Assembly: GCA_036002045.1 (NCBI GenBank) | Contig: DASYTT010000095.1 | Span: forward strand, 3,061 to 67,060 | Reading direction: 5' to 3' | Source of the DNA: Gemmatimonadales bacterium | GTDB lineage: Bacteria; Gemmatimonadota; Gemmatimonadetes; Gemmatimonadales; GWC2-71-9 | DNA: 64,000 nt | Part shown: positions 10,121 to 41,627 of the stretch, piece by piece | Position numbering within the stretch: the first letter of the stretch is position 1 | Layout: each line of letters begins with the position of its first letter | The notes under the pieces: model-generated | Told to the model about the DNA's origin: nothing | The model's database searches: none | Seen by the model: only the letters and a program-made list of their open reading frames with translations | Program-made: the position numbers and the translations under genes

Positions 10121-10246
10121 TACACTTACGCGCGGGAGGCTCAGCATCGGAGCCCAGCGAAAGAATTTTGCCTCCCGCCAATACGACGGGATACGCCCTT
10201 ATGGCAGGGAGCGAGTGCTCAGGATCGACGCTCGGGCTCGAGTCCG

Positions 10247-10274
10247 ATAGCCAATAGCCCATAGCCCATAGCCA
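10247..10274. repeat. tandem array of four heptamers ATAGCCM, inverted partner of 10086-10120
   Basis: Read directly: ATAGCCA ATAGCCC ATAGCCC ATAGCCA. The reverse complement, TGGCTAT GGGCTAT GGGCTAT TGGCTAT, matches the left array. Confidence 0.9.
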
Positions 10275-10360
10275 GAAACCAAGTTGCCGAGGCGCTCCAA
10301 ATCCGTCAGATTGGTAAGCTGTTGTGTGCCCGGCGTTTCTGACGTGAAGCCCAAGGTCGG

Positions 10361-27500: not shown

Positions 27501-29885
27501 GATGATTACCGGATTCGCGTCCAGGGCGACCGCCTACCTCCGGCACCGTGGGCCAACGTCATCGCGAATCCGCGGGGTGGGTTCTTCGTCACCGAGCGGG
27601 GTGCGGGAACTACCTGGGCGGCAAACAGCTATTTCTTCCGCCTCACGCCGTGGCACAACGATCCAGTGAGTGACCCGGCAGGTGATGCACTGTACCTTCG
27701 CGACGACGAATCGGGAGAGTTCTGGGGCCCGACGCCGGCGCCGGTCAAGAGCGGTCGCCCGTATGTCGTCAAGCATTCGCCCGGCATCTCCTCGTTCGAG
27801 CACGAGCATGCCGGCATTGCCACCGAGCTCACTGTCGGTCTGGCGGGCAATGAACCGATCAAGGTTTCGTTGCTCCGGATAACGAATCGCCAGTCGCGGA
27901 GACGGCGGCTCTCCCTGGTGGCCTACGTCGAATGGGCGCTGGGCGTGCTGCGCGAACATACCCAGCACCAGGTCCGCACGGCTTTCGAGCCCGAGCTCGG
28001 CGCGATCTTCGCCCGCAACCACTTTCATCCTCAGTTCGCGCACCTAGTCGGGTTCTGCGCAGTGAGTGCGCCGGTCACCAGCCACACAGGAAGCCGGCAT
28101 GAGTTCCTCGGGCGGAACGGGACGCCGGCCGAACCGGCTGCGCTGCGCCAGGGCGAAGGGCTACTCAGCGGCACCACCGGTCCCGGACTGGATCCTTGCG
28201 CGGCGCTCGCCTGCGCGCTGGAGCTCGCTCCGGGTGAAACGCGCGAGGTCGCGGTCCTGCTGGGCGCCGCTCCGGATGAAGCGACCGCACGGCGGACGGT
28301 TGCCCAGTATCGCGACGTCGCCCGCGCCAAGCAGGCGGTCGCCGAGTCGGTGCGCGAATGGACGGAGCGGCTCTCGGTGATCACCGTGCATACACCGGAG
28401 CCTGCGTTCGATGCCATGCTCAATCGCTGGTCCCTGTATCAGGCGCTCGCTTGCCGGATGTGGGGGCGCACCGCGATGTATCAGAGCAGCGGAGCCTACG
28501 GATTCCGCGACCAGCTCCAGGATGTGATGGCATTCGTCTACGCCGAGCCGGACCTCGCCCGTGCACATCTGGTGCGGGCGGCGGGCCGCCAGTTCGTGGA
28601 AGGCGACGTGCAGCATTGGTGGCATCCGGAGAGCGGACGCGGCGTGCGCACTCGCTTCTCCGATGACCTGGTCTGGCTGCCGTACGTGGTCGACCACTAC
28701 GTGCGCATCAGCGGTGACGCGGGTGTGCTCGACGAATCGGCGCCATTCCTCCGCATGCGCGCGCTCGAGCCGGGTGAAGCGGAGGCGTACGAGCTCCCGG
28801 AGAGCAGTGGCGAGAGCGCCAGCGTGTACGAGCATTGTCGGCGCGCCCTGCGGAAGGCATGCACCGCTGGTGCGCACGGCCTTCCGCTCATCGGCACGGG
28901 AGACTGGAACGACGGAATGAACCGGGTCGGGCTGGCTGGACGCGGAGAGAGCGTCTGGCTCGCCTGGTTTCTCATCGCCACGTTACGGAGCTTTGCCCAG
29001 CATGCGGATGCCCGGGGCGATCGGGAGACCGCGAGGGAGTGCCGCGCGCAGGCGGACGCCTACCTGGCAGCGGTCGAGACGCACGGCTGGGACGGCGCCT
29101 GGTATCGCCGGGCCTACTTCGACGACGGCACTCCGCTCGGAGCGGCGGTGAACTCCGAATGCCGAATCGACTCGATCGCGCAGAGTTGGAGCGTGATTTC
29201 CGGCGCCGGCGATCCGGCGCGGCAGGAGCAGGCGATGCAATCGGTCGAAGAGCATCTGGTGCTCGAAGACGCGCGGATCGTGAAACTGCTCACCCCGCCA
29301 TTCGACGCAATGCCGGAAGACCCCGGATACATCAAAGGCTATGTCCCCGGCGTCCGGGAGAACGGCGCGCAGTACACCCATGCGGCGGCGTGGGTCGTGC
29401 TTGCCACGGCACTGCGCGGTCAGGGGAACCGTGCGTTCGAGCTGTACCAGATGCTCAATCCACTCACCCACGCCGCGACGCCGGCCGGCGCGGCAAAGTA
29501 CAAGGTCGAGCCCTACGTGATCGCCGCCGACGTCTACACGACCCCCGGATCGCTCGGGCGCGGAGGGTGGACCTGGTACACCGGATCCGCGAGCTGGATG
29601 TACCGGGTGGGGCTGGAAGCGCTTCTGGGGTTCACGAAACGGGGCGCTACCCTGCGGATCGATCCCTGCGTCCCGGCGCAGTGGCCCGAGCTCACGATCG
29701 AGTACCGCTATGGGACGAGCCTCTATGTCATCGTCGTGCAGTCGCCGGGAGCGATCCGTGGCAACGGATCCGAGACAACTCTGGATGGAGCTGCGCTGGA
29801 AAACGGAGTCATTCCCCTCGTGGATGACGGACGACCGCACGAAGTGGTCGTGCGCCCACGCGTGCCGGCGACTCAAGGAGTTTGA
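21531..29885 (+). CDS. ndvB: cyclic beta-1,2-glucan synthase (GT84 glycosyltransferase + GH94 phosphorylase-like domains), 2784 aa
   Basis: Size and layout match NdvB/ChvB/Cgs: an N-terminal region (PIRGELLGAEHLAERA), TM helices, a GT domain with VITLDADTVLPPEA, then a C-terminal GH94-like alpha/alpha barrel (DQLQD.., GDWNDGMN, RENGAQYTHAA). Confidence 0.9.
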   Translation: MRALFSRWLRPRRRSAMSTEYRLAGPIRGELLGAEHLAERARTLATRQRLVPVRRRPRRARLLNRLNATRSLLDSAHARLAAASLQGTDIGPAGEWLLDNYHVVQEHVREVHESLPRDFYRELPELASGPLAGYPRIYELVITLIAHTEGRLDSDNVDPFFDAFQEKVALSIGELWAVPAMLRLGLLENIRRMALRTVQRLDEVEEADRWVARIQADNAQDSTILADTLAEFVLEPPALSSIFVSRFLHQLRQASGAFPPLVWLEEWITSAGLSPDEATARATERLALTKLMMANSIMSLRGITQRDWRKFVEHESRMERVLREDPAGFYPQMTFATRDQYRHVVERIAKRIRRSEDAVAREAVELARAGAAADPRRGHVGYYLIDRGLAGLEATLGYRPRVGEALYRWILRHPNSVFVGGILAFTAVALLALFQLAGESARSAWLAVALIALLPATDLAVNMVNQLVTVLLPPRLLPKLDFRDHGVPEEYRTAVVIPTLFESVDEVGDALANLEVQYLANREAHLHFALLSDFKDSAIETRESDAGIIAAAEAGVRDLNARYAPESQDAFYLFHRPRRWNERQGVWMGWERKRGKLQEFNQFLRGGAQEAFTTVVGDVESIRRVRYVITLDADTVLPPEAGAVLVGALAHPLNHAEYDPELARVVRGYGVLQPRVGVSLASAHRSRFAAIHSGHPGVDPYTTAVSDVYQDLYGEGSYTGKGIYDVDAFERATEGRFPENTLLSHDLIEGNYARAGLATDITVYDDYPTGYLTFTRRKHRWIRGDWQLLQWLTPWVPGLHGLERNRLSLLSRWKLLDNLRRSTVELAQLAFLLAGWTILPGSPLRWTLLGLGAIVAPWVLALLLAVVRPPSDKSWRAYYRAVGQDALTSAQQVALAITFLPHQAWVSLDAIVRTLWRLFVTKRKLLEWETASRAERVTSGTPQEMWRAMGPAVAAMSLAMLGTLVLGQLRGSPGLGPLAVALLPLALLWAVAPAIAYALSAPIAPLVRTLSEASRAVALRYARLHWEYFERFVLAETNWLAPDNFQEHPVPTVAMRTSPTNLGLQLLATVSAYDLGIIQLADMTVRLERAFLSLARLPRFRGHFYNWYDLRSLATLEPAYISTVDSGNLAGHLMALRQACLALADDPAAGQGDLARRLEVLAEQAQEYITAMDFGFLFDPSRKLFSIGYNPATHALDPSYYDLLASEARLASFVAIAKNDVPFSHWFRLGRGLISAAGETALVSWSGSMFEYLMPLLVMHSFPFTVLGQTYDGALDIQIAYGSERGVPWGISECAYNLRDRHRTYQYRGFGVPALGLKRGLARNLVVAPYASALAALIDPERALQNLQTLEGMGLLGAYGFYDAADYTRPDPGQPFALVRNYMAHHIGMTLVALSNTLQAQLWQQRFHSDPMVRATALLLDERVPRRLALLPAQTAHPDEAPPPAEPARPVVREIATPHTQQPHVALLGHTPYTVMVSNAGGGYSRFEDLAVSRWRADGTRDHTGQFCYVKDLTRRRAWAAGYQPLCAEADWYRAFLATDRVTLERSDGEIETKLEIVVVPEDAAEVRRVTLTNNGSETRELELTSYGEIVLAPPETDRVHPAFANLFVETEWHEWCTAITATRRPRSATERALWCVHVVDSGKERVGTASCETDRARFLGRGRTPRDPIVLEQDGALSGTTGAVLDPIFALRTRVRLLPGQTASVAFTTLVATSRERAFALADRYHDSHTAQRSLDLAWTSTQIELRELEISPTDAAVFQDLAGYLIYPNPALRAPTEELRADQGSQQQLWANGISGDWPIVLATIESAEGLATLQQVFLAHRYWRRRGMTIDLVVVNAQPHSYQQELNDRIIETMLATSGSGVADAPGGIFIRQLGSLVPADLRMIAVTARVRIPCDGRPLARLVAESRLPTFPDSLEREPEPPPPRRVERSTLPFLSLAERIRNRAASVIGLTRSPQHADVPQALDPAPAAAGPLRFDNGLGGLTLEDDYRIRVQGDRLPPAPWANVIANPRGGFFVTERGAGTTWAANSYFFRLTPWHNDPVSDPAGDALYLRDDESGEFWGPTPAPVKSGRPYVVKHSPGISSFEHEHAGIATELTVGLAGNEPIKVSLLRITNRQSRRRRLSLVAYVEWALGVLREHTQHQVRTAFEPELGAIFARNHFHPQFAHLVGFCAVSAPVTSHTGSRHEFLGRNGTPAEPAALRQGEGLLSGTTGPGLDPCAALACALELAPGETREVAVLLGAAPDEATARRTVAQYRDVARAKQAVAESVREWTERLSVITVHTPEPAFDAMLNRWSLYQALACRMWGRTAMYQSSGAYGFRDQLQDVMAFVYAEPDLARAHLVRAAGRQFVEGDVQHWWHPESGRGVRTRFSDDLVWLPYVVDHYVRISGDAGVLDESAPFLRMRALEPGEAEAYELPESSGESASVYEHCRRALRKACTAGAHGLPLIGTGDWNDGMNRVGLAGRGESVWLAWFLIATLRSFAQHADARGDRETARECRAQADAYLAAVETHGWDGAWYRRAYFDDGTPLGAAVNSECRIDSIAQSWSVISGAGDPARQEQAMQSVEEHLVLEDARIVKLLTPPFDAMPEDPGYIKGYVPGVRENGAQYTHAAAWVVLATALRGQGNRAFELYQMLNPLTHAATPAGAAKYKVEPYVIAADVYTTPGSLGRGGWTWYTGSASWMYRVGLEALLGFTKRGATLRIDPCVPAQWPELTIEYRYGTSLYVIVVQSPGAIRGNGSETTLDGAALENGVIPLVDDGRPHEVVVRPRVPATQGV

Positions 29886-30691
29886 GCCGCGTCACCCCGC
29901 CTCCGCGCGACAAATATCAGCTCCCCTGGATACATCGAGCCGTACGCACTCTTGTCGTAGTCGGCGTACAGATGTTCGACCGCGAAGCCGGCCCGGGCGA
30001 GCAGGTGCTCCGCCTCGAAACGGAAGAGATAGCGCATCCGGATGGGTTGGACCAGGCGTTCTTGGCGTCCATCCGGGTGGGTCACATCATAGAGAAGCTC
30101 CACGTCATTTACCTGATTGAAGCGATCCTGGGCAACGGTCCGGTGGCGCCGGATGATGCGGCGGCCGTCCGCCATGGAAAACTCGGGCTCCGCACTGAAT
30201 TCCTCCCCGACCGGCCGGTGCGCCAGATAATCGAACGACGGATTGAAGAGATCGAGTATGAGGGTGCCCCCGTCGATCAGGTGCCGGCGGATGCTGTCCA
30301 GACAGGAGAGCTGTTCCCCCACGGTGAGCAGATGCTGGAAAGGACGAAACGGAATCGTGACGAGAGCGAAGCGGCGACTCAGCTCGAACCGCCGCATGTC
30401 GGCCTGTACCAGCTCCACCTTGGATCGCACGGCCTCCGGCTCTTTCCCCAACTGGCGACGGCAGACGGCCAGCATGCTGGAGGAGAGGTCCAGCCCGACA
30501 ATGTCGATTCCCGCTCGGGCTATGGGAAGCAGGACGCGACCGGTGCCGCAGCCGACCTCGAGCACCGGTCCGCCCGATTCCCGCGCCGCCGCAACGAAAA
30601 AGTCGACATCGCGCCGCTCCCGATAAGGCACGACGTGGTCGTAGAGCTCGGCGATGAATTCATAATCGTCGGGTTTCCCGGCGGGACTCAT
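29873..30691 (-). CDS. class I SAM-dependent methyltransferase
   Basis: ATG 30691 overlaps the upstream stop (ATGA). Motif I VLEVGCGTGRV, IVGLDLSSSML, and GGTLILDL. The 3' end overlaps the glucan synthase 3' end by 13 nt (convergent). Confidence 0.8.
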   Translation of the reverse strand: MSPAGKPDDYEFIAELYDHVVPYRERRDVDFFVAAARESGGPVLEVGCGTGRVLLPIARAGIDIVGLDLSSSMLAVCRRQLGKEPEAVRSKVELVQADMRRFELSRRFALVTIPFRPFQHLLTVGEQLSCLDSIRRHLIDGGTLILDLFNPSFDYLAHRPVGEEFSAEPEFSMADGRRIIRRHRTVAQDRFNQVNDVELLYDVTHPDGRQERLVQPIRMRYLFRFEAEHLLARAGFAVEHLYADYDKSAYGSMYPGELIFVARRRGDAAQTP

Positions 30692-31254
30692 GGTCCGACC
30701 TCCCGCAACAGCGCGTCGACCTGCGCCAGGAGCAGGTCCGTAGCGGACTGGACCGAGCGCCCCGTGGTGTCGAGCACCGGAATCCCCAGCGCATCGGCTT
30801 GTCCGCGGAGGTAGGCCGCCCAGGCATCCATTCGGCTGCCCGACAGCTCGGGCTGCGCAGGGGACCTGGTCAGCCGGGCGCGGCGATCCGCCGGGCTGCA
30901 ATCCACCAGCAGAATGCGGCCGAGCCGAATCCCGGACGACTCGAATGCGGCGACCGCAAAGCTCGGACGGGTTTGCGCGTCCAGCACCGCGAGCCGGGCC
31001 CCCTCCGGATTGGCTGCCAGGCGTTGCATCCATTGCTCCGTCATCACCCGCTGCCAGGCCTCGGGTCCCCCGAATTGCAACGTCATCAGCTCGACGGAGG
31101 GAACCCCGATGCTGTCGAAGTAATAACAGAGGACACCCGGGCGGGACGTTTCGATCGCCTTGACCAGCGTCGTTTTTCCTGCCCCGGAAGCCCCCGTGAC
31201 GACGAGCACGGCTGGTGGTGAAACAATGCGGCGTTGCTGGGCGGCACCCGTCAA
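30688..31254 (-). CDS. P-loop NTPase / small-molecule-kinase-like protein
   Basis: Walker A VTGASGAGKTTL, Walker B-like ILLVDC, followed by RRARLTR. The TTG 31254 start was chosen because it overlaps the cupredoxin stop (TTGA). The ORF-track start at 31308 would overlap 58 nt. Confidence 0.65.
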   Translation of the reverse strand: MTGAAQQRRIVSPPAVLVVTGASGAGKTTLVKAIETSRPGVLCYYFDSIGVPSVELMTLQFGGPEAWQRVMTEQWMQRLAANPEGARLAVLDAQTRPSFAVAAFESSGIRLGRILLVDCSPADRRARLTRSPAQPELSGSRMDAWAAYLRGQADALGIPVLDTTGRSVQSATDLLLAQVDALLREVGP

Positions 31255-31697
31255 TGCAGGGATCTCAAGGTTCCGAGCATTGAGTTCGCGTGGCCTGACA
31301 TCAGGCAAACGTAGGTGTAGCTACCGGGTGGAGGAACCGTGAAGGTGACTTCGACCGTCTGGCCCGGTGAGGCGAGCGGGGTCCAGGCAATCAGCTTGGC
31401 CTTAAGCGCGGCCGGGACATAATCGCCTCCCTGTTGCATTGCGGCGCTCGCGAGCGCGTCGATATCGGCCTCATTGCGTACCAGCACGAAGTTATGAGGC
31501 AACGTCCCGGCGTTGACGAAGCGTAGACGAACCTGCATCCCCTGCTTGAGCGCGATCGTGGGAGGGTCGAACTCCAGCGTGCTGCTGCTCGCGCGGACGG
31601 TGATGGTCGTGTCGACGGGCAGAGGGGCAGAGGGGGGGAAGGGCAGAGAGCTGAGGGATCCTCCCAGGAGTGAGGCGATCGCCACGAGCGGGATCAT
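31251..31697 (-). CDS. azurin-type blue-copper (cupredoxin) protein, secreted
   Basis: Signal peptide MIPLVAIASLLGGSLS. Type-1 Cu ligand pattern: LPHNFVL (His), then YVC-LMSG-H-ANS-M, with the Cys-x4-His-x3-Met spacing seen in azurin. ATG 31697 overlaps the upstream stop (ATGA). Confidence 0.8.
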   Translation of the reverse strand: MIPLVAIASLLGGSLSSLPFPPSAPLPVDTTITVRASSSTLEFDPPTIALKQGMQVRLRFVNAGTLPHNFVLVRNEADIDALASAAMQQGGDYVPAALKAKLIAWTPLASPGQTVEVTFTVPPPGSYTYVCLMSGHANSMLGTLRSLH

Positions 31698-34600
31698 GGC
31701 TGCTTGAATACCTCGGGCAGCGTCCAGCGGGCGGCGACCTTGGCAAATGCAGCAGTCAGCTCCGGCGAGGCATCGCGCGCCGAGGCAGCCAGTGCCGCGC
31801 GCTGCTCGACGCTGAGCTCGGGCGGGCTTTCCTGGGGCCAACCCTCCGCGATCCCGGTCAAGAGCGCGACCGCGAGCTGGGCGGTGGCTTGCGGGACGGC
31901 GCCGATCAGCTCGACGACCTTCGGGATGTCCTTCGGCGCGGCGTGATAGCGAGCGAGCTTGGCGACCGCTCGCTGCATTCCCGCGACTGCCAGCGAGTCG
32001 TTGTCGGGGACCCTGCGACGGACGAGCTCCCGGAGAAAATCCGGGCCCTGTTTGGCCCCGGCGATGGCCACCGCGTCCGGCAGCCAGGCATCCCGCGCAT
32101 TGGCAGGAAACATGATGATGTCCGCGATGCCCGCTGCCGCTCGCGGCGAGGCCGGCAGCTCCGACAGCGCCAGTAGCGCCTCGAGCCGCACGTGGGCATC
32201 GGCATCCTGGAGGATACCGGTCGGTACCGTGTACTCCACGGGCCAGGGGGAGCTGCGATCGGGAAGGATCCCTGCGGCAAAGATGGCGTCGGCGAGCTCT
32301 TGATCACGCGGCAACAGCATGAGCGCGGCCCGGCGGAGCGAAGCCGCGGGATGGTAGAGTGCGTTGCGCGCGGCCCTCAGCGCATCCCCCGGCTGACCCA
32401 GCGCACCGAGTCCCTGTAGCGTCCAGAGCGCGTGGAGCGCGGAGGGATTGAGGCCCTGCGCATCGACGGTCTGATCGTTGACGAGCTCGATCAGGGCCGG
32501 CACCACGTCCTGCTTGCCGCGCTCCACCAGCAGGCGTTGGGCTGTGAGGCGCCAGAACAGGTTGTCGTTCTTGAGGGCCCGGACCAGCTGCGGCGGCGAG
32601 GCCTTGTCGAGCCTCAGTGGCGGCGCGGCGCCGACGCTGTCGTAGGCGATCCGGTAGATCCGGCCGTGAAGCCGGTCGCGGTTGGGGGTCTCGTAGGCGT
32701 TGCCGGGACCGGTCTCGCAACAGCCCTGGAGATCCTTCGGCGTCGGGTTGTGCTGCGCGACCAGCGTGTAGAAGTCGGAAACCCAAAGGGCGCCGTCGGG
32801 CCCGACCTTTACCTGAACGGGCGCGGCCCAGGCATCCCGGCTGGCCAGGAAGCTCCAGCGATTCTTCGCGCGGAACGCCGATCCATTGTCGTTGAGCTCG
32901 AACATCCCGATAAGGTGGGCGGTCGGCTCGGCGACGAAGGCCACGCGATTCCAGTATTCCTTGGGGAACGCCCGCGCCGTGTAGACCTCGTGGGCCGCGC
33001 CCGCCGTGTAGCGACCGAACTGATCTACCTGCAGAATGTCGCGAACGGGGAAGACATCGAGCCGATCGGCGATATCGGGCAGCACGGTGTCGCGCGCGCC
33101 CATCGCACGATAGTAGCGGAGTGGAATGTGCACGAAGTTCGAGGGGCGGCTGTTTGCCGTGGAGCCGAAGACGAAATTGTCCTCCGTGAAGGCGACGCCC
33201 CAGGTGTTGTTGCTGGTGCGCGCGACGTATTCCAGCTCGGAGCCGTCACCCGGAAACCGGAAGTAGCCGGACCCGAACTGCCCGCGCGCGTAGGTGGTCT
33301 TCCCTACCGTGCCACGGAAGCCGTTGTATCCGAGCGAGCCCCAGACCTGATTATCGAAACCGTAGCGCAGGTTGCTGATGGTTCCGTGAGTATCACCGCG
33401 GGGGAATCCAGTAAAGAGGATCTGCTTCTCGTCGGCCTTGTCGTCCCCATTGGTGTCCTTGAAAAAGAGCATGTGCGGTGCCTGGCCTACGACGAGGCCG
33501 CCGTTCGCGAACGCGAGCGAAGTCGCCAGGTTGAGCCCCTCGGCAAAGACCGTCACCTTGTCGGCGACCCCATCGTTGTTGCTGTCCTGCAGGATGAGAA
33601 TCCGGTCGTGGCCCGGTACGCTGTCGGGAAGGACGACGTTGGGATAGTCGTTGGTCTCCACCGCCCACATCCGGCCGCGAGCATCCCAGGTGAAATCGAT
33701 GATGTTCCCGATCAACGGCTCGAACGCGAAAGGGGTGACGCTGAAGCGTGGCCGCAGCGTCATCAACAAGAGCGACTCGCGAGTGGGCAGCGCGTCCGGC
33801 GCCCGGGTGACGGCGGTATCCAGCGTGTTCCACGGAGCCGGCGGCCGCTTATAGGTTGGCAGCGGGACCGGCAGGTCGAGCATTTTGGGGGCCGGGCTCG
33901 CGGCGACGCGCGTCAAAGCGGCGTCGCCGGCCGTCCAGCGAATCCCCCGCTCTACCAGCCGCTGGAAGCCCGGGTTACCCCAGGTGCGCTGGTCGTGACC
34001 CCAGGCGGTGTAGAACACCCTGCCCTTCCCATAGGTGCGAACCCAGGTCCAGGGCTCATCGTGGCCGTTTTCCCGCCGTACTTCGAGCACGGTGCGATTG
34101 ACCGGGTTGTGCTTGGTGTGCACGTAGGTCTCATCCCAGCTGGTGAACGTCGGCACGTCCCTGATCGCGGGGTGATCGGGCGTAACCCGCACGACGCTGA
34201 ACGTATCGGTCCCGTGACTCTTGAAAGCGGCACCGACCAGCCGGATGAACTCTTCGGAATTCTGGAAGGAAGCCGAGGCGCAATGCAGCACCACCAGACC
34301 GCCTCCGTCTCCGACGAACGCGAGCAGCGCCGCGAGCTGCGGCTTGGAGATCGTGAGGTGATTGTTGTAGAGCATGACCACCTGGTAACGATTGAGCTCG
34401 GCGTCGTTCAGATCCTCGCGGTCGTCGGTGTAGAAGAGGTCGATACCATTCTGGGCCAGAATGGGCAGCAGCTCCTTGGCGCGCTGGGTGGGCCGATGAT
34501 GACCATTGTCGCCGAGGAACAAGACGGCCAGGCGGGCAACCGGGCGGCGGTTGGGCTGCTGGGCGATTAGGCGGGTCTGCGCATGAGCGGAAGCCGGCAG

Positions 34601-36154
34601 CAGCAGGACGAGCAGTAAGGCGGCCGCTTTGGCCAGCCTGACGGCTCGATAGCCGCCTCGGCGGCGATCGGCGAGATACATCGCCCCAAAGACGAGAATG
34701 AGGACGAGCGCCGCTGGTGCGATGTACCGAAACGCGCGCTGGCCCCCTGCGGCTTCCGCGGGCTGCAGGATCGCGTTGGCCTCGGCCACCAGAGGCTCGC
34801 CGGGAATCGCGGTCGCCACGATGGCGCGAAGCGCGTTGGCGGTGGCGTCGTTGTGGAGGCTGCCGGTCGCCTGCTGCGTTGCGAGGGCGGCCCGGGTGGC
34901 GTTGAGCGCTTCCTCCACCTCATGGGGTCGGTAACCCAGGGTCGAGAGGTCAGGTGTGGCGGGCTCCAGGTATTCCGGGAACTTCTGTTCGACGCGCTGC
35001 AGCAGGTCGGCAGTCTGCGCGGGCAGCGAGGCCGCCAGGTAACGGTCCGCCAGCTTGCCCATGAGCGGGACGCCGACGGCGCCAGCCATGCCGAGGCCGA
35101 TTCCAGCGGTCAGCACGATGCCAAGCGAACCGGTGCGCGGCAGCTTCTCACTCACCGTGCCGACCATGGTGGGGAAAAAGAACGCAACGCCGCAGGCGAA
35201 GACGGTCGCGGCCGCGAAGGCACTCCAGGTGCCGGTGGCAAAGCTCAGGAGAAAAAGTCCCGAGCCGGTGAGCAGGGCGGCGATGAGTAACATGCCGGTC
35301 GGCTGCAATCGCTCGACGGCATGGCCGGCAAGCGAGCGCAACACCACCATCCAGCCGCTGATCCAGACGAGCACCAGGATGCCGTGCAAGCCAGCCGACT
35401 GGAGCACCGCGGGCACCCAGCGCATGGGCCCGAGCTCCATCGAGGTGGTGATCGCCATCATCGCGAGCATCAGCAGGAAGAACGGATTCGTCAGCGTGTA
35501 ACGGAACATGTCGCGAACCGGGATGCCGTGTTCGGCATTCTCCGTTTTGGGAAATCGCTGCGGAAGGAGTAGCGTCCCATAGACGAGAATCGGCAGGTAA
35601 ATCACTGCGAGCTGCCAGGGCCAATAAAAAAACTTGCCGCCCCAGGTCGCGAGCGCAAAGCCGGTGAGTCCGCCGAGCACGATACCGATTGGGAAGAACG
35701 CGTGAAACCAGTTCAGGTGTTTGGTCTTCGCGTCGGGGAAGAGAGCCGCGACGAGTGGGTTCCCGGTCACCTCAATCATCCCGTTCCCTGCAGCCAGGGT
35801 TGCCGCGCCCGCCATCAGCATCCAGAAGGCCGACGGGTCGCCCACCCGGGTAACCGCCAGAATCATCAGCGTGATGCCGGTGAGGTGGCCGGCAAAGGCG
35901 AGCCGAGCGCCGTTCTTCAATCCAAAGGCCTCGAGCAGCGGCCCCATCACGAGCAGCGAGATCGCCATGCCCCAGAGGGCGGCGCCGCCGATCAGGCCGA
36001 CCTGGTAGTTGGTGAGGATGAATTGCTGCTTGAGCGGCACCAGGATGTTGCTGACCAGCGCGAAGGAGGCGCCGGTCGGAATCAGCGCCAGGCAGATTCC
36101 AAAGAAGAGGCGGCGCCGGTGGATCGCGCCGGGCTGTGTGCCGGGCTCGGCCAT
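31694..36154 (-). CDS. fusion protein: 12-TM MFS permease + internal signal peptide/13th TM + ThuA-like domain + TIGR02604-type beta-propeller dehydrogenase domain + HEAT-like repeats (no cytochrome c)
   Basis: Single uninterrupted frame. Start taken as ATG 36154 (GGAG 10 nt upstream); the ORF-track GTG 36202 is an alternative. Domain motifs are listed in the findings. Confidence 0.75.
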   Translation of the reverse strand: MAEPGTQPGAIHRRRLFFGICLALIPTGASFALVSNILVPLKQQFILTNYQVGLIGGAALWGMAISLLVMGPLLEAFGLKNGARLAFAGHLTGITLMILAVTRVGDPSAFWMLMAGAATLAAGNGMIEVTGNPLVAALFPDAKTKHLNWFHAFFPIGIVLGGLTGFALATWGGKFFYWPWQLAVIYLPILVYGTLLLPQRFPKTENAEHGIPVRDMFRYTLTNPFFLLMLAMMAITTSMELGPMRWVPAVLQSAGLHGILVLVWISGWMVVLRSLAGHAVERLQPTGMLLIAALLTGSGLFLLSFATGTWSAFAAATVFACGVAFFFPTMVGTVSEKLPRTGSLGIVLTAGIGLGMAGAVGVPLMGKLADRYLAASLPAQTADLLQRVEQKFPEYLEPATPDLSTLGYRPHEVEEALNATRAALATQQATGSLHNDATANALRAIVATAIPGEPLVAEANAILQPAEAAGGQRAFRYIAPAALVLILVFGAMYLADRRRGGYRAVRLAKAAALLLVLLLPASAHAQTRLIAQQPNRRPVARLAVLFLGDNGHHRPTQRAKELLPILAQNGIDLFYTDDREDLNDAELNRYQVVMLYNNHLTISKPQLAALLAFVGDGGGLVVLHCASASFQNSEEFIRLVGAAFKSHGTDTFSVVRVTPDHPAIRDVPTFTSWDETYVHTKHNPVNRTVLEVRRENGHDEPWTWVRTYGKGRVFYTAWGHDQRTWGNPGFQRLVERGIRWTAGDAALTRVAASPAPKMLDLPVPLPTYKRPPAPWNTLDTAVTRAPDALPTRESLLLMTLRPRFSVTPFAFEPLIGNIIDFTWDARGRMWAVETNDYPNVVLPDSVPGHDRILILQDSNNDGVADKVTVFAEGLNLATSLAFANGGLVVGQAPHMLFFKDTNGDDKADEKQILFTGFPRGDTHGTISNLRYGFDNQVWGSLGYNGFRGTVGKTTYARGQFGSGYFRFPGDGSELEYVARTSNNTWGVAFTEDNFVFGSTANSRPSNFVHIPLRYYRAMGARDTVLPDIADRLDVFPVRDILQVDQFGRYTAGAAHEVYTARAFPKEYWNRVAFVAEPTAHLIGMFELNDNGSAFRAKNRWSFLASRDAWAAPVQVKVGPDGALWVSDFYTLVAQHNPTPKDLQGCCETGPGNAYETPNRDRLHGRIYRIAYDSVGAAPPLRLDKASPPQLVRALKNDNLFWRLTAQRLLVERGKQDVVPALIELVNDQTVDAQGLNPSALHALWTLQGLGALGQPGDALRAARNALYHPAASLRRAALMLLPRDQELADAIFAAGILPDRSSPWPVEYTVPTGILQDADAHVRLEALLALSELPASPRAAAGIADIIMFPANARDAWLPDAVAIAGAKQGPDFLRELVRRRVPDNDSLAVAGMQRAVAKLARYHAAPKDIPKVVELIGAVPQATAQLAVALLTGIAEGWPQESPPELSVEQRAALAASARDASPELTAAFAKVAARWTLPEVFKQP

Positions 36155-36195
36155 GTCAATTACTCCGGAGATGGACGGCTTCCGAGATAATAGCG

Positions 36196-38313
36196 CTAAC
36201 ACTCGATCGGCGCGCCTTCGGCCCGGCCGCGTAGCCGCACCCGGTATGCCGAGCCCGAGCGCGCGCGGGACCAGCGGAGCTGCCAGCGAGCCGGCTGCTG
36301 ACGGAGCGAGCGCAGATGGAGCTCGACGGAAGGATCATCATCCCACGCCACTACCACACTATCGTGAAGGATTTCGACGTTAGGGCTGGTGACGAAGGGA
36401 CTCCGGGCAGGCCAATCCTGGACCGCGCCGAGCCGGTAATCGACGTAGAGCGTATCACGGGAGCACCACGCCCGCTCCACCCGGGGCGACTCCATGCGAG
36501 CGGATTTCTCGGGATGCAGGAGAGCTCTCCGGGTGCCCGGAAAATACGAGATGGTCCGGGCGCTCGCCCTCGGCAGAGTATCTCCAGTAGACAGGAGCGT
36601 AGTCAACCCCGAGAATGCCCGGACGAACATCGCGGCCTCTCCAGGACCGTAGAGCGTCGAGCCTCCTTCGTAGCGCTGTGCAGCGTATTCCTCCGCGGTG
36701 GTCACGTAGCCGATATGTCCATTGCTGAGGCCCAGGATCAGCGCCGTGTCCACGGAAAGGCCAAGCCGGTGGGCCGCCGCGAGCATCGCCGCACGCAGAT
36801 GGCCTCCGGTCGTGGTGGTCACCTCGCCGGGAATTGTACCGATCACGCGGTTTCCGATCCGCAGCACCGAGAGCTGAGCGAACGAGGGAAGCTTCGGGCT
36901 CACGGCCACCCGGTTCGGAAGGCTGCCGAACAGGACATCGAACAGGAGATGCTTGGACCCATGACAGCCCTGGCCGTGTGGATTGGCGGCTCCCTGCTCG
37001 AAACTCAGGGAAAGGAGCCCGAGCAATCGCAAGCGATTCACCCGGGTTAGGGCATCGGTTGAGCCACCTATGATGGAGGCTCCGACGGCCGGCACCCGGC
37101 AAATTCGCAGGGAGTCCGCATCCTGGCGGAGCGCCAGGGTCGAAAAGGTGCGCCCCAGCGTGAGTCGCTCGTCGAGTGCGTCGCCCAAGCTGTCGAATAG
37201 CTTGATCGCCTCGTCTCCCAAGCCGTTGCCGATCCGTTCGACCGCGTCCCGGGCTGCGTGGATGCAAGCAGCGGCGTCAGGTGGTGGCAGCGGCTTCCAT
37301 TGCCAGAGGGGCTTCGTGAACGGTCCTTCGAGCAGTGGCCAGGTGGCGAGGACCGGCACGGCGCAGCGGCTCCGGCTCGGCCAGTCCGGGGAAACGTCTC
37401 CTTCGGCGCCATTCGCGAAGAGATGAAATGCGTTCGGCACAAAGGACCCGGACCGATCGATGTGGCGCTCGAGCCGGCGCTCTACCAAGCCATGGATGTC
37501 CGCATCGAGCAGCTCATTCTCAGAGGCGTTGCCGGTGCCGTGGATGGCGAAGTGGCTGAAGGCTCCGACGGGCCGGTAGCGTCCGGTGAGGGAATCACGC
37601 TGATCGATCCGCAACAGCGTGAGGGTCGGATCGATCAAGCGGTACTCGAGCGGAAGCGAATCAGGTGCATCGGACGGTGCCGTGGGCTCCGGGAGATTGC
37701 GAAGCAGCGCCGACATGCTCCGAATGCGCGTATAGCCCCAGACCCGCCGGCTGCCCCATGCCGCCTTCGCGTCACGCAGATCCAGCGTGGCCGCGTGAAC
37801 TGCAGCAGCAATCCGCCGTGCGAGCGAATCCAACAAGACAGTGTCAAATCCCACCACGGAGCTGCCCTGGTCGTTGAAGGCTCCGCCCTCGAAGTAATGG
37901 CTGGGCCCCGAATGGGTATGGGTGACGGAAATAATCAAACGGTCAACCCCAATCCCGTCGCTGGCGGCCGTCAACGCCGCCACGCGCCGATGTAACAGGG
38001 CCGAGCCCAGCGGCAAGTCGGCCACCACGAGTGCAAGACGATTGCCGGCAGAATCCTCGAGCAACATAACCCGCGCGTACAAGCGCAGGCGGTAGCCGTG
38101 CGCGCGGCGTCCTTCGGTGGCATTTCCAGCCAGTCCGACACCGGCGGGCGGGGTGATGTCCGCCCGGCCGAATCCGGCCCGCAGGCGGGCTGAGTTCCCG
38201 GGATGGGGCTCCGGGCGGGGGCTCAGCAGACCATCCAGGAGAAGAGCTCTCCCGCAGGAGGTCAGCAGCGCGCTCGACAGCGCCAGTAGGACGAGCTGTC
38301 GCGCGGGAGTCAT
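36196..38313 (-). CDS. neutral/alkaline (non-lysosomal) ceramidase family protein, lipoprotein
   Basis: ATG 38313 overlaps the upstream stop (ATGA). Lipobox LLTSCG. N-terminal domain hallmarks FGRADITPPAGVGLAG, YARVMLLED and IISVTHTHSGPSHYFEG. Confidence 0.85.
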   Translation of the reverse strand: MTPARQLVLLALSSALLTSCGRALLLDGLLSPRPEPHPGNSARLRAGFGRADITPPAGVGLAGNATEGRRAHGYRLRLYARVMLLEDSAGNRLALVVADLPLGSALLHRRVAALTAASDGIGVDRLIISVTHTHSGPSHYFEGGAFNDQGSSVVGFDTVLLDSLARRIAAAVHAATLDLRDAKAAWGSRRVWGYTRIRSMSALLRNLPEPTAPSDAPDSLPLEYRLIDPTLTLLRIDQRDSLTGRYRPVGAFSHFAIHGTGNASENELLDADIHGLVERRLERHIDRSGSFVPNAFHLFANGAEGDVSPDWPSRSRCAVPVLATWPLLEGPFTKPLWQWKPLPPPDAAACIHAARDAVERIGNGLGDEAIKLFDSLGDALDERLTLGRTFSTLALRQDADSLRICRVPAVGASIIGGSTDALTRVNRLRLLGLLSLSFEQGAANPHGQGCHGSKHLLFDVLFGSLPNRVAVSPKLPSFAQLSVLRIGNRVIGTIPGEVTTTTGGHLRAAMLAAAHRLGLSVDTALILGLSNGHIGYVTTAEEYAAQRYEGGSTLYGPGEAAMFVRAFSGLTTLLSTGDTLPRASARTISYFPGTRRALLHPEKSARMESPRVERAWCSRDTLYVDYRLGAVQDWPARSPFVTSPNVEILHDSVVVAWDDDPSVELHLRSLRQQPARWQLRWSRARSGSAYRVRLRGRAEGAPIEC

Positions 38314-39179
38314 CGCAAGGTCCGCGCTTCGCCGCCCAGCAGCAACGTCACGCCGGCGGACAGCCACACGATCACGTTTTGGCTGCGCCCGATTCCATCG
38401 TAGCGAGTGGCGTCGTCCAAGTTGAGCTGGCTGTTCAATGCCACGCTGAAATTCGCCGAGCCCAGTCCCGGCCACTGGCTGACCCGGAAGAGCAGGTCGA
38501 GCCCGAGGCCGGCATGCGTAAGCCCACGCTCGGAGAAATTGGCGAGGTCGCTTGGCCGGGTGGGATCGGCTGCCTGCCCCAGGTTCAAACCGATTTCGCC
38601 GCCGAGTGAGACAAAGAAGAAAGGCGCGATCGGCCAACCCATAACGGGCGAGCTGGCGGAGGCGCGAATAAAGCCGCCCCTGACCTGATCGAGGTCCCAC
38701 CATGCTTCCAGCAGCGGGTTGAGGTAGGTACTGGTTACTCCCGCGGCGAGGTAGGCCTCCGTCGTGTTACCCAGCGGCCCAGCACCTCCTTGAGGCGAGG
38801 CACCTCGAAAGACATAGCGCACGATTCCCGAGCGCAGCCGGACAGAGCCGAGGCCGAGATCCGCCTGGACCCAGAGATTGTCCTCGCCGAGGTGACCGGC
38901 GCTATTCCCCAGCTCGGATAACTCGTCCGGGCTCACCTGGTCCAATTCGTAGTGGCGCGCCAGGCCGATCGCGAGGGAGAGGCTGCGCAACTGGTAGCCT
39001 GCGGCAAGCGACGGTTGGAGCACGATGCCGCCGGCTCGCGAAAGCCCGTGCCAAACGTAGCGATTGGAGGCGGCGAGGTCCAATCTCGCGACGGGCTGGG
39101 CGGAGAGGGGCACGACTACTATCCAACAAAGAAGACCCTGGAGCGCGTGACAGCGAGAAGCTAACCCGCTATTCCGCAA
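38310..39179 (-). CDS. putative outer-membrane beta-barrel protein (TorF/Gcw_chp-like)
   Basis: Signal peptide ..LLCWIVVVPLSAQP. Alternating hydrophobic strands; the early SNRYVWHGLSRAGGIVLQPSLAAGY resembles the TorF-like porin start. The family call is tentative. Confidence 0.55.
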   Translation of the reverse strand: MRNSGLASRCHALQGLLCWIVVVPLSAQPVARLDLAASNRYVWHGLSRAGGIVLQPSLAAGYQLRSLSLAIGLARHYELDQVSPDELSELGNSAGHLGEDNLWVQADLGLGSVRLRSGIVRYVFRGASPQGGAGPLGNTTEAYLAAGVTSTYLNPLLEAWWDLDQVRGGFIRASASSPVMGWPIAPFFFVSLGGEIGLNLGQAADPTRPSDLANFSERGLTHAGLGLDLLFRVSQWPGLGSANFSVALNSQLNLDDATRYDGIGRSQNVIVWLSAGVTLLLGGEARTLR

Positions 39180-40737
39180 CTGAGGCTCGCGTCCTCCACC
39201 ATTCGGCGGCTTGCTCCTCGTCCCAGGGCGCGACGTCGATCGCGGTGAGAGCGCGGCTCAGCTCGGCGGCGCTCCGCGGCCGCTGCTCGGGCCGCTTGGC
39301 CAGGCAGTCGAGTACAAGTTGCTCGAGGGCGGCCGGCACGGAATTGTCGGCGCGCTGGGAGGGCGGAACTGGCACCTCGTTCAGGTGTCGGGCGATCACG
39401 TGGACGACGTTGGCCGATTCGAAGCACGTTTTGCCGGTGAGGAGATAATAGGCGACGCAGCCCAGGGCATAGAGATCGGCCCGGCTGTCAATACTTTCAC
39501 CCAGAATCATTTCGGGAGCCATATAGTCCGGCGTTCCCGGGGTCAGGCCGACCTCGGTGGCGAGCGACAGCTCACGAGGGACAGTCTCCACCGATTTGAC
39601 CAAGCCAAAGTCCAGCACCTTCACGAAGTCATGGCTCAGGCCCAAGTGTCCGATGTGAATGTTGGCGGGCTTGATATCGCGATGCACCAGACCCGCGGCG
39701 TGGGCTTCCTGCAGGGACGCACACACCTGGCGCAGAATGTGAATGACCCGATTGGCGGGCAAGGGTCCGTGCTCGCGGACCAAGACGTCCAAGGTCATTC
39801 CGTCGAGCAGCTCCATCACGAAATAGAGTGTCTCGTCGGTTGTCACCCCGAAGTCGTAAAGCTCCACCGTATGGGGGGAGCGGAGGTTCGCGGCCGCCTG
39901 GGCCTCGCGGCGGAACCGCTTGACCGCAAGCTCTCCTGCCGCGCCGTTGCCGATCGTCTCAGGCCGGATGAGCTTGATGGCGGCAGGCCGCGCCAGCATG
40001 CGGTGGGTGGCGCGATAGACTTCTCCCATGCCGCCTTTGCCGAGCAGGTCACCCAGCTGATAGCTACCCATCTCCCGTGCCCTGCTGACCTGCTGACCCA
40101 GCTTGGTGACGACTTGCGAAATGACGACGGCGACACCGACGACGAGATAGTCCCAGTAGTGCATCCGCAGCAGATCGCCGAAGGACTCGTACTGCCAGCC
40201 ACCACGGGCTCTGGCGATAGCCATGCCGAGCGGGTTCATCGAGACCGCAAGCAGACCGGTGACCAGCGTCTTGAGCGGCGTGCTGGGCACGACCGCGGCG
40301 AAGAGAAGCACCGCCACACCAATCCAGCTGACGCCCGGCACAGGCTCGGCAGTGGAGGGCGCCCAGTGCCAGATCAGCCCCAGTGCGGCGGAGAGAAAAA
40401 CCAGGAAGCCGAGGCCGAGGTCCAAGATGAAGGCGGGGCTTCGGCTGCTCCGCCTGGTGTAGAAAAAGAGCGCGAAGGAAACCACGGCGCTCGCCAGGCC
40501 TATCGCGTCAGCGGACTGGAAGGCGAGCCAGGCGGGGTCACCCGAGGCACGCTGGATCAGGAGGTGATCCAGTAGCAGGCCGGCCACCCACAGAATACCG
40601 GCGAGCAGCGCGATGATTCCCAGCCGGCGCGAAGCATCACGGAGCAGATCGTCGGGGAGTCGGCGGCGACCTGGTGCTGCGGGGTAATTCGCTGAAGCGC
40701 TTGCGGGAGCCTGGCCGATCAGTTGCGGCGCGGCCAT
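39169..40737 (-). CDS. Ser/Thr protein kinase with N-terminal 6-TM membrane domain
   Basis: ATG 40737 is preceded by GGAGG. Six hydrophobic helices, then Hanks motifs AAIKLI, HRDIKPANIHI, DFGLVK, GTPDYMAPE. Confidence 0.9.
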   Translation of the reverse strand: MAAPQLIGQAPASASANYPAAPGRRRLPDDLLRDASRRLGIIALLAGILWVAGLLLDHLLIQRASGDPAWLAFQSADAIGLASAVVSFALFFYTRRSSRSPAFILDLGLGFLVFLSAALGLIWHWAPSTAEPVPGVSWIGVAVLLFAAVVPSTPLKTLVTGLLAVSMNPLGMAIARARGGWQYESFGDLLRMHYWDYLVVGVAVVISQVVTKLGQQVSRAREMGSYQLGDLLGKGGMGEVYRATHRMLARPAAIKLIRPETIGNGAAGELAVKRFRREAQAAANLRSPHTVELYDFGVTTDETLYFVMELLDGMTLDVLVREHGPLPANRVIHILRQVCASLQEAHAAGLVHRDIKPANIHIGHLGLSHDFVKVLDFGLVKSVETVPRELSLATEVGLTPGTPDYMAPEMILGESIDSRADLYALGCVAYYLLTGKTCFESANVVHVIARHLNEVPVPPSQRADNSVPAALEQLVLDCLAKRPEQRPRSAAELSRALTAIDVAPWDEEQAAEWWRTRASVAE

Positions 40738-40760
40738 GGGACCTCCGTTCAACGGAGAGT

Positions 40761-40970
40761 CTACGGCGATTCCCTGGTCTGCTCCAGCGAGGCATTCAGC
40801 GCCGTCGCAAGAGCAGCCTCGCCGCTGATCAGGGCGCTCCACGCAAGCTCCAGCCCTTTGCGTTTGCCCTTGGGCGTCAGCTTGAGTCCGTCCGGAGTGA
40901 TGATGAGCACGTAGGGCTCACCGCCGATGTTGAGCTCGCGCTTCAACGGCTTCTCGAGTTTGGTAGTCAT
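40761..40970 (-). CDS. small basic hypothetical protein (69 aa)
   Basis: ATG with GGAG 13 nt upstream. Ends 23 nt before the kinase start. No recognised family. Confidence 0.45.
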   Translation of the reverse strand: MTTKLEKPLKRELNIGGEPYVLIITPDGLKLTPKGKRKGLELAWSALISGEAALATALNASLEQTRESP

Positions 40971-41035
40971 GGCCTAAATCTACTCCATTTTGCGCTCGGG
41001 GGCGGAGGAAGGGCGGACGGACAGGTGAACCCGGT

Positions 41036-41069
41036 CCAAGAAAGAAAAGTCCCGATCACGGCGACGGGA
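41036..41069 (-). terminator. weak stem-loop plus T-tract at the end of the DUF3224 gene
   Basis: Minus strand reads TCCCG-N10-CGGGA followed by CTTTTCTTTCTT. The stem is only 5 bp and overlaps the stop codon. Confidence 0.3.
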
Positions 41070-41538
41070 TGGTGTACTCGAGCTCGTAGGAGTGCTTGCC
41101 GTCGGCGATCGTGATGAGCATCCTGCCGGCCAGACCCACCAGCTCGCCGGTGCCTGAGTCCGGCACAACCGTAATGATCAGCTGGGACGCGCCGCGTGTC
41201 ATGGTGCCGGAATGCTGGAGCACGAATGTGCCGTTCTTCCCGTGCAACCTGCCCGTCACCCGCTCGATGGCCACGTAACCCGCAGAGCCGCTGGCGACAG
41301 TGCCCGCCGTCAGCATCTCGCCCTTGCTGGTGCCCTCCAGGTCGCCGTGGAATTGCTTCTCGAGCGACATCCGGCTCAGGGTCGAACCCGCGAGGCTGTC
41401 CGCCAGGGGCAGCGGAGACAGCGTAACGTCGAAGCTGCCGCGAGCGTGCCGAGTCTGCACCTGCGCAAATACCGGCGGAACCACAGGGGACATGAGGATA
41501 CCCAGAATGACAACAGGAGTGCAGCATCGGTTCAGCAT
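41056..41538 (-). CDS. DUF3224-family protein with signal peptide
   Basis: ATG 41538 gives MLNRCCTPVVILGILMSPVVPPVFA-Q. The core GSFDVTL..MSLEKQFHGDLEGTSKGEMLTA..GYVAIERVTGRLHGKNGTFVLQH is DUF3224-like. Confidence 0.7.
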   Translation of the reverse strand: MLNRCCTPVVILGILMSPVVPPVFAQVQTRHARGSFDVTLSPLPLADSLAGSTLSRMSLEKQFHGDLEGTSKGEMLTAGTVASGSAGYVAIERVTGRLHGKNGTFVLQHSGTMTRGASQLIITVVPDSGTGELVGLAGRMLITIADGKHSYELEYTIPSP

Positions 41539-41627
41539 GTTTGGCCGGGTGCTCGGTTTCCAGGCGGTCGTGTCGAAGCCGATGTCGCCACCGTCCAAAG
41601 AATATAGGCCGACACCAGGGAGGAAGA

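Follow-up and report, generated by a model that had tools for sequence, protein, structure and literature searches.

A block of eight minus-strand genes was analysed in a 64,000-nt stretch of DNA from an uncultured Gemmatimonadales bacterium (contig DASYTT010000095.1 of assembly GCA_036002045.1, positions 3,061 to 67,060), here termed the window. From 5′ to 3′ the genes encode a 69-amino-acid protein (g69), a membrane Ser/Thr kinase (STK), a predicted outer-membrane β-barrel (barrel), a ceramidase-like predicted lipoprotein (cer), a transporter–dehydrogenase-like fusion protein (fusion), a cupredoxin, a P-loop protein and a methyltransferase (MT). The block is probably a lineage-specific super-operon in which three separable modules are placed head to tail, and not one dedicated pathway. 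Module A consists of g69, STK, barrel and cer; Module B of fusion and cupredoxin; and Module C of the P-loop protein and MT together with a cytochrome P450 gene that is present in some relatives. Gemmatimonadota are a major soil phylum for which there is almost no envelope biochemistry.

The separability of the modules is seen in a comparison of approximately 150 related loci (designated by L and a number), whose gene content was determined by tblastn with the window proteins and propagated from annotated contigs. One set was anchored on the ceramidase (one genome per GTDB species, 58 loci) and another on the fusion gene (80 metagenome loci, with counts restricted to loci with enough DNA). The barrel gene abuts cer in all 35 Gemmatimonadota loci having upstream DNA, and in none of the 13 loci of other phyla. 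The fusion gene, on the other hand, follows cer in 0 of the 33 Gemmatimonadota GTDB loci having downstream DNA, and cer precedes fusion in only one of 38 fusion-anchored loci (L102, a close relative of the window). The cupredoxin gene is directly 3′ of fusion in 26 of 26 loci, and homologues of the P-loop protein and MT are found with fusion in 0 of the same 26. The initial annotation of this DNA had joined all eight genes into one envelope-spanning route and had named conservation of gene order as a check. That check goes against it, as the full array is confined to a narrow clade.

Within this closest clade, entire modules are present in some loci and absent from others, but the order of genes inside a module is fixed. 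In the window, L062 and L148 the order is g69-STK-barrel-cer-fusion-cupredoxin-Ploop-MT. L149 has the same set plus a P450 gene (cupredoxin-P450-Ploop-MT), with 4-nt overlaps throughout the tail. L001 resembles the window, but its tail is P450-MT without the P-loop gene. L063 has g69-STK-barrel-cer-P450-MT and lacks both fusion and cupredoxin; thus the tail module accompanies the ceramidase block, and not the fusion gene. L102 shows STK-barrel-cer-fusion, after which the contig ends, and L018 has only STK-barrel-cer, without g69. The full gene set is therefore limited to L062, L148, L149 (plus P450) and L001 (minus P-loop); elsewhere sub-modules recur.

The eight open reading frames and their packing are as initially described, and the gaps and overlaps computed from the sequence agree exactly. 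Each frame has a single terminal stop. The junctions, from 5′ to 3′, are +23 and −11 nt, −4 (ATGA), +41, −4 (ATGA), −4 (TTGA) and −4 (ATGA), and in the 41-nt cer–fusion gap there is a GGAG 8 nt ahead of the fusion ATG. The TTG starts of barrel and the P-loop gene are the least secure details of the gene models. Co-directional genes and short gaps or overlaps, as in a single operon, are present, and a conserved −10-like box lies inside the cer–fusion gap. Terminator-like sites are not enriched (7 found and 7.8 expected in a terminator scan). The G+C content is ∼66% across the window, with no break in base composition between modules. All close homologues of the ceramidase-like, barrel and fusion proteins are from Gemmatimonadota, and the fusion protein of the window is itself recorded as belonging to a Gemmatimonadales metagenome-assembled genome. 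Tight, overlap-coupled packing in a single genome does not establish a pathway.

Module A: barrel, ceramidase-like lipoprotein and kinase

The cer product matches PF04734 (Ceramidase_alk) with an E-value of 6.4e-56 (190.5 bits, gathering threshold 32.1) over model positions 3–507 of 509. It aligns with the neutral ceramidase of Pseudomonas aeruginosa (PaCD; PDB 2ZWS/2ZXC, also PF04734) over the full-length catalytic domain (8.6e-33 and ∼30% identity with 2ZWS). The zinc ligands of PaCD (His97, His204, Glu411 and Tyr448) and its catalytic His99 and Tyr460 are all conserved: PaCD H97/H99/H204/E411/Y448/Y460 correspond to cer H132/H134/H258/E497/Y536/Y548, and these residues are invariant in a 12-sequence alignment (A1) of the Gemmatimonadota clade. 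Cer differs from the secreted PaCD in other respects. It has a lipobox, LTSC, with a nearly invariant Cys20 and Gly at +2, and a coupled barrel gene always upstream. In addition, it scores far below the equivalog cut-off of NF041649 (144.5 bits compared with 1200), and its C-terminal ∼130 residues (∼575–705) have no Pfam match and no recognisable C-terminal ceramidase domain. Judged by these alignments, cer is a PF04734 member with an intact active site, but not an equivalog of the characterised ceramidases.

The barrel protein has an N-terminal hydrophobic segment that serves as a predicted signal peptide. An AlphaFold2 (AF2) model built from a 47-sequence alignment is all-β, with ∼12–14 strands, 12–13 of them long (predicted local distance difference test score, pLDDT, 83.5; predicted template modelling score, pTM, 0.78). 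Foldseek gave 166 PDB matches at E ≤ 1e-3, and the best 50 of the 166 are all outer-membrane barrels; neighbours include PcoB (3.8e-8), OmpG, intimin, NanC, Tsx, a COG4313 channel and LpxR. By modelled fold class, the gene product is thus predicted to be an outer-membrane β-barrel, as initially proposed. The label "TorF-like", after the TorF-family/Gcw_chp putative porins, that had been attached to it is unsupported, since neither the sequence nor the 47-sequence profile has a Pfam or PDB match; no Pfam family at E ≤ 10 is common to the 47 members, and the barrel is best regarded as an unannotated family. Homology to SphA/COG4313 proteins was considered and rejected, as the family profile finds no barrel in PDB at E ≤ 10, and the COG4313 structure 4RL8 is a generic fold neighbour (rank 18, TM-scores 0.44/0.47).

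The 4-nt start/stop overlap of barrel and cer is kept in L001, L002, L003, L062, L063, L148 and L149, at cer identities of 48% to 100%. Together with the adjacency counts, this points to barrel as an obligate, translationally coupled partner of cer across Gemmatimonadota. In L018, L005 and L006 the block ends at cer; the genes that come next in L005 and L018 have the opposite orientation. The cer gene of L018, the closest GTDB species (82% identity; 10001–12111), is split across two frames (high-scoring segment pairs 10001–11161 and 11104–12111), which represents either an assembly frameshift or a pseudogene.

The STK protein has six hydrophobic, putatively transmembrane segments with very short outer loops and a K/R-rich start, followed by a C-terminal kinase domain. 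The Hanks motifs are complete (GKGGMGEV 233, AAIK 252, HRDIKPAN 352, DFG 376 and APE 407). Because of the six segments, the K/R-rich N-terminus and the presence of every Hanks motif, STK is predicted to join an active kinase domain in the cytoplasm to a membrane sensor with few loops. A full-length membrane STK adjoins barrel-cer in seven species of the ceramidase-anchored set: on the same strand upstream in L004, L005, L006 and L018, downstream in L019, and on the opposite strand in L022 and L043. The STK–barrel junction in relatives spans −11 to +25 nt. Since the adjacency is retained despite rearrangement, there is good evidence that the kinase is functionally tied to barrel-cer.

In comparisons of g69 with three orthologues, synonymous and nonsynonymous codon changes number 14:1, 20:5 and 27:6. 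This synonymous excess indicates a real gene under strong purifying selection. The gene is clade-specific, with relatives detected only in the closest clade: it is present in L001, L062, L063, L148 and L149, and missing 5′ of STK in L018, L004 and L005. The protein has no Pfam or NCBIfam match. Its single-sequence AF2 model (pLDDT 72.5; four strands plus helices) has no Foldseek match better than E = 0.3. A PH/FERM-F3-like fold was considered, but the resemblance is weak (E ≥ 0.3) and no assignment is drawn.

With respect to function, barrel and the cer lipoprotein would be made in a coupled fashion and most likely function together. The barrel may provide a hydrophobic N-acyl-amine lipid, of ceramide or sphingoid type, with access to or docking at the zinc amidase, which would cleave this lipid and thereby release a fatty acid and a free amine. 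The six-helix, loop-poor STK may sense the state of the membrane or its lipids and signal to the cytoplasm, with g69 as a possible partner or substrate of the kinase.

Perhaps the pair does not scavenge lipids but acts on those of the cell's own outer membrane, detaching an amide-linked acyl chain from a sphingolipid, an ornithine-type aminolipid or a lipid A-like molecule, with STK a sensor of envelope homeostasis and the remaining genes hitch-hiking. A phylum-wide, obligate and translationally coupled pair is what might be expected of an envelope housekeeping device. The Gly at +2 of the lipobox suggests outer-membrane targeting, the lipid A deacylase LpxR is among the barrel fold neighbours, and a kinase membrane domain nearly devoid of extracytoplasmic loops suits intramembrane sensing. 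Neighbours of barrel-cer in another clade, described below, include ornithine-cyclodeaminase-like and pyridoxal phosphate (PLP) enzymes. However, the barrel has no sequence link to lipid A-modifying barrels, the literature yielded nothing on the lipid composition of Gemmatimonadota, and the characterised bacterial neutral ceramidases, as far as is known, all act on exogenous or host ceramide (PMC5150637). On balance the remodelling of endogenous lipids appears unlikely. Nor did the literature yield anything relevant on a bacterial ceramidase in conjunction with the outer membrane.

A phylum-wide, uncharacterised barrel family that is tightly linked to a neutral-ceramidase homologue with its catalytic residues intact, and often to a membrane STK, offers a handle on lipid-amide processing in Gemmatimonadota.

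Other neighbours of the pair were observed. In a clade at 56–59% cer identity, a di-haem oxidoreductase gene (DHOR, PF06537) is directly 5′ of barrel-cer in L012 (7886–9034), L028 (4875–6032) and L035 (3533–4684), and is nearby in L002 and L011; ornithine-cyclodeaminase-like and PALP genes recur 3′ of the pair in this clade. In a distant Gemmatimonadales lineage (L003 1674–13226 and L019 6746–18294), NfeD/Band_7 genes are upstream of barrel-cer, and downstream are a transmembrane kinase, which in L003 is divided between two genes, followed by DUF4956, another kinase and DUF5686; here the core pair has kinase-rich surroundings of a different kind. A P450 gene adjoins a distant cer homologue in two loci from myxobacteria (Polyangia, Nannocystaceae; L052 12362–13678 and L060 11975–13300, both minus strand). 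These P450s are 25–27% identical to the Gemmatimonadales P450, and the adjacency may reflect chance or a wider association.

Upstream of g69 there is a GTAGATT(T) motif preceded by GGAG (window 40971–40990, minus strand, and also in L062, L063 and L001). Its distance to the g69 ATG varies, ∼8 nt in some cases and ∼55 nt in others, and it is possibly a promoter or regulatory element of Module A.

Module B: the fusion–cupredoxin unit and its predicted promoter

The fusion protein begins with a FucP-like major facilitator superfamily (MFS) domain and continues with ThuA and DUF7133 (2.3e-102; TIGR02604 225.8 bits, cut-off 122.2), the latter a dehydrogenase-like β-propeller followed by HEAT repeats. 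From hydropathy and the positive-inside rule, the MFS part is predicted to have 12 transmembrane segments (TMs), with a 114-aa insert before TM12; after it would come a cytoplasmic RRR loop, TM13 as a signal-anchor, and a C-terminal ∼965 aa that would be periplasmic. The MFS-ThuA-DUF7133-HEAT architecture is found in more than 110 protein clusters in Gemmatimonadales at 62–90% identity.

The public product name of the fusion protein is "PVC-type heme-binding CxxCH protein". It shares TIGR02604/DUF7133 and HEAT with the PVC-type proteins, which often have ThuA in front as well, but it has an MFS domain fused on at the N-terminus, and there is no CxxCH motif in its 1486 residues (which include only five Cys) and no cytochrome Pfam match. 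The name is a misnomer here; a separate cupredoxin gene occupies the place of the cytochrome domain.

The cupredoxin scores 42 bits with PF00127 (threshold 21.2) and has an N-terminal hydrophobic signal or anchor. The copper ligands H68/C131/H136/M140 are invariant in eight sequences, including fused forms. It had been called an azurin, but its 33 bits are well below the 105.1 of the azurin equivalog TIGR02695, and the more general name is used here. The other domain labels of the initial annotation (kinase, ceramidase, fusion, P-loop and methyltransferase) hold in outline. In three long contigs (L065–L067) the fusion gene is in unrelated neighbourhoods and the cupredoxin gene always follows it. 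Moreover, in distant homologues that lack the MFS domain (L118, L120, L129 and L135) the cupredoxin is fused C-terminally to ThuA-DUF7133-HEAT. The joining of the two parts in one open reading frame is a Rosetta-stone link, by which the DUF7133 domain probably hands its electrons to the cupredoxin. The constant fusion–cupredoxin pairing thus corrects the product name and points to the electron acceptor of a large family. A literature search on ThuA with cupredoxin gave nothing relevant.

Module B probably also keeps its own promoter inside the block. In the window, the hexamer TATTAT (36187–36192) is 5 nt past the cer stop and 38 nt before the fusion ATG. A −10-like box, defined as TAnnnT with at least 5/6 matches to TATAAT between −65 and −11 of the fusion start, occurs before fusion in 22 of 48 unique loci (mostly as TATACT) as opposed to 0.7% of random windows, and in 19 of the 22 it is 30–40 nt from the fusion ATG regardless of the upstream gene. 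It is this conservation that suggests promoter activity. The sequence after the cer stop, TAGCGCTATACT / TAGCGCTATTAT (L063 12116–12134; window 36187–36195), is kept in L063, where it lies ahead of the P450 gene. Since this sequence is retained, L063 may stem from a deletion of fusion–cupredoxin, and not the other loci from an insertion.

Module B would accordingly be an autonomous unit with its own promoter, widespread in Gemmatimonadales. An MFS importer of sugar type would carry the dehydrogenase-like propeller on its periplasmic side, and a blue-copper protein would take up the electrons; the cupredoxin would thus do the work that a c-type cytochrome domain does in canonical PVC-type proteins.

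The usual neighbours of fusion–cupredoxin are a convergent TMEM220-like gene, a TonB-dependent receptor and PEP_hydrolase (PF09370). This neighbourhood is seen in L066 (12968–17608; plus UPF0261), L068, L070, L074, L075, L077, L082, L088, L092 and others, and a PfkB kinase gene is immediately 5′ of fusion in L065, L068 and L069. This larger conserved cluster may hold a clue to what the fusion protein really acts on.

Module C and the question of a single route

The P-loop protein has a Walker A sequence, GASGAGKT, and belongs to a family with 650 representatives at E ≤ 1e-3. Family members match AAA_18 (41 of 42), AAA_33, Zeta_toxin, CPT and APS_kinase, and the family profile against PDB gives APS kinase (3.9e-7) followed by adenylate kinases (∼1e-3). 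The window protein itself has weak P-loop/AAA matches, none of them above a curated cut-off. The fold appears kinase-like; neither the family nor the PDB profile comparison shows a specific similarity to gluconokinase. Orthologues at 83–85% identity are present in L062, L148 and L149, and the gene is missing in L001 and L063.

The MT protein, present in L001, L062, L063, L148 and L149, has as its best PDB match 9SOT, the methyltransferase CorZ (E = 8e-49, residues 9–263). The next named matches are mostly N-methyltransferases: MtfA (PCZA361.24), CcbJ, dTDP-amino-sugar N,N-dimethyltransferases of the TylM1 type, CalS10 and the cypemycin N-methyltransferase. A daptide-methyltransferase match (1.1e-34) is below cut-off. 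The P450 that directly precedes MT in L001 and L063 matches enzymes of the CYP120, CYP152 and CYP51 types and is missing from the block in the window. From L001 and L063 it might seem that the P-loop gene replaces the P450 gene, but L149 has both, in the order P450-Ploop-MT, and differential loss fits better. Module C would be a cytoplasmic tailoring set (lipid-type P450, P-loop protein and amine N-methyltransferase, the P450 having been lost in the window) tied to Module A and not to Module B. Its plausible role is the modification or detoxification of the amine or fatty acid set free by Module A. In L010, an MT of 43% identity is directly 5′ of barrel-cer, in the order MT-barrel-cer.

The resemblance of MT to CorZ raises the question of whether the tail is a cluster for a ribosomally synthesised and post-translationally modified peptide (RiPP) of the biarylitide type, with g69 or a mini-ORF as the precursor. 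CorZ/BytZ methylates the free N-terminal primary amine of the biarylitide myxarylin and follows a P450 in its own cluster, and proteases of the prolyl oligopeptidase (POP) family process biarylitides (PMC12951456). The block has parallels in that P450 is found in the tail with MT in L001, L063 and L149, and a Peptidase_S9 gene, whose product might remove a leader, is upstream in the window, L062, L063 and L148. However, the P450 is CYP120/152/51-like and not BytO-like, with no biarylitide P450 among its PDB matches at E ≤ 1e-20. There is no MxYxH-type mini-ORF, that is, no pentapeptide precursor gene, 5′ of the P450, and g69, a highly conserved basic protein, is unlike a RiPP precursor. As the window also lacks the P450, a biarylitide cluster is effectively refuted.

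The initial annotation proposed that all eight genes form one catabolic route across the envelope, with entry through the barrel, deacylation, copper-linked oxidation, MFS import and phosphorylation, sensed by STK; its substrate was guessed to be a glycolipid or a lipid of ceramide type. The localisation of the single parts largely holds (barrel, lipobox, copper site and six-TM kinase); it is their union that fails synteny. In addition to the counts given at the outset, the L063 block is without fusion–cupredoxin, L001 is without the P-loop gene, the fusion gene has its own conserved −10-like box, and the fusion family is far more conserved and widespread than is its association with cer. The analogy drawn with periplasmic sugar oxidation by Gcd, gluconate permease and gluconokinase finds no comparative support, because the P-loop gene is never with fusion elsewhere and is missing in L001 and L063. 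Module B alone does resemble a system in which a product of periplasmic oxidation is taken up by a physically linked importer. Outside the clade, however, the P-loop protein, with its generic kinase fold, is unlinked to fusion; the kinase found beside fusion elsewhere is PfkB-family, which at least gives a sugar kinase next to the transporter a precedent.

The route was also said to correspond to no described pathway, which overlooks the SphR regulon of P. aeruginosa. This sphingosine-sensing regulon comprises the neutral ceramidase gene cerN, sphA (predicted porin), sphB (periplasmic cytochrome c), sphC (oxidoreductase) and sphD (PLP aldolase) (PMC3900636). With such a set of products controlled by a single sensor, it speaks in favour of a unified route. 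It is the closest described analogue in logic, having in common with the block a ceramidase-family enzyme, a small outer-membrane barrel, a periplasmic electron carrier with an oxidoreductase and a dedicated lipid-responsive sensor, and it offers the best guide to how Module A might operate, alone or with Module B. Only the ceramidase is homologous (∼30% identity). The sensor is an AraC regulator in P. aeruginosa and a membrane Ser/Thr kinase here; the carrier is a cytochrome c and here a cupredoxin; the oxidoreductase is flavin-dependent and here a ThuA-DUF7133 protein. The regulon genes are at three loci, whereas those of the block are contiguous, and the barrel has a generic fold similarity, and no sequence similarity, to COG4313/SphA-type proteins.

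Several observations weigh against the modular interpretation. At least five related contigs (L062, L148, L149, L001 and L102) keep the full array, down to ∼72% cer identity. Gaps are no longer than 41 nt and there are no strong internal terminators; because of this and the stability of the array, read-through co-transcription and some functional coupling may occur in this lineage. No −35 element before fusion is conserved across loci. The DHOR neighbours echo the arrangement: there, too, periplasmic redox genes lie beside barrel-cer, although they are not homologous to those of the block. Lastly, a literature search on sphingolipids that Gemmatimonadota make or meet yielded nothing relevant, which bears on the lipid assignment of Module A. 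The tight packing, the retained array, the SphR precedent and the DHOR genes likewise count towards a unified route, but set against the synteny such a route is improbable.

A super-operon of three modules is thus the preferred interpretation. The adjacency of Module B may give read-through co-expression, and comparative evidence for a metabolic hand-off from Module A to Module B is not found in these loci. A more specific scheme is rather unlikely: barrel, the cer lipoprotein and STK would form an outer-membrane machine that senses and deacylates sphingoid or N-acyl-amine lipids, Module C would tailor the amine in the cytoplasm, and Module B would have been recruited in this lineage alone to oxidise and import a product. 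If true, it would be the first kinase-controlled catabolic or detoxification route of sphingolipid type in a non-proteobacterial phylum. Neither the barrel–cer nor the fusion–cupredoxin observation overturns current knowledge, and no new pathway is demonstrated.

Coordinates and borders of the block

Features of the block and its borders (positions in the window)
Feature	Position	Strand	Description
g69	40761..40970	-	69-aa basic cytoplasmic protein (predicted); first gene of the block
STK	39169..40737	-	membrane Hanks-type Ser/Thr kinase; Pkinase 3.8e-47
barrel	38310..39179	-	TTG start; predicted outer-membrane β-barrel with signal peptide
ceramidase-like (cer)	36196..38313	-	PF04734 Zn amidase, predicted lipoprotein
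TATTAT −10-like hexamer	36187..36192	-	predicted internal promoter of the fusion–cupredoxin unit
fusion	31694..36154	-	1486 aa; MFS_1 + ThuA + DUF7133/TIGR02604 + HEAT (Pfam, NCBIfam)
cupredoxin	31251..31697	-	type-1 copper protein; Copper-bind 1.3e-10
P-loop	30688..31254	-	TTG start, uncertain; small nucleotide/small-molecule-kinase fold class
MT	29873..30691	-	class I S-adenosylmethionine methyltransferase, amine-N-methyltransferase type; last gene of the block
weak hairpin + T-run	41036..41069	-	overlaps the stop of an upstream DUF3224-like gene; upstream edge of the block
GH94/glycoamylase gene	21531..29885	+	2784 aa, cyclic β-1,2-glucan synthase-like; convergent; downstream boundary

At the upstream edge, the candidate terminator initially placed at 41036–41069 does not stand as an intrinsic terminator. 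It is a hairpin of 4–5+2 bp that the terminator scan did not call, its stability does not exceed that of shuffled sequences (z = +1.45), and orthologous loci do not share it. The edge is better backed by synteny, as the genes 5′ of g69 vary among relatives (DUF3224 in some and DinB in others). An Rfam scan of window positions 28000–43000 found no RNA families.

At the downstream edge, the GH94/glycoamylase gene overlaps the 3′ end of MT by 13 nt. Orthologues with PF10091, PF06165 and PF17167 are found in L062, L148 and L001. The convergent GH94–MT arrangement is kept in L062 and L148, and in L001 a GH94 homologue of 2795 aa is near the block. Further upstream of the block in the window are PALP (42607–43596) and Peptidase_S9 (prolyl-oligopeptidase family; 43606–46473) genes, both on the minus strand, and the two are syntenic in L062, L063, L064 and L148.

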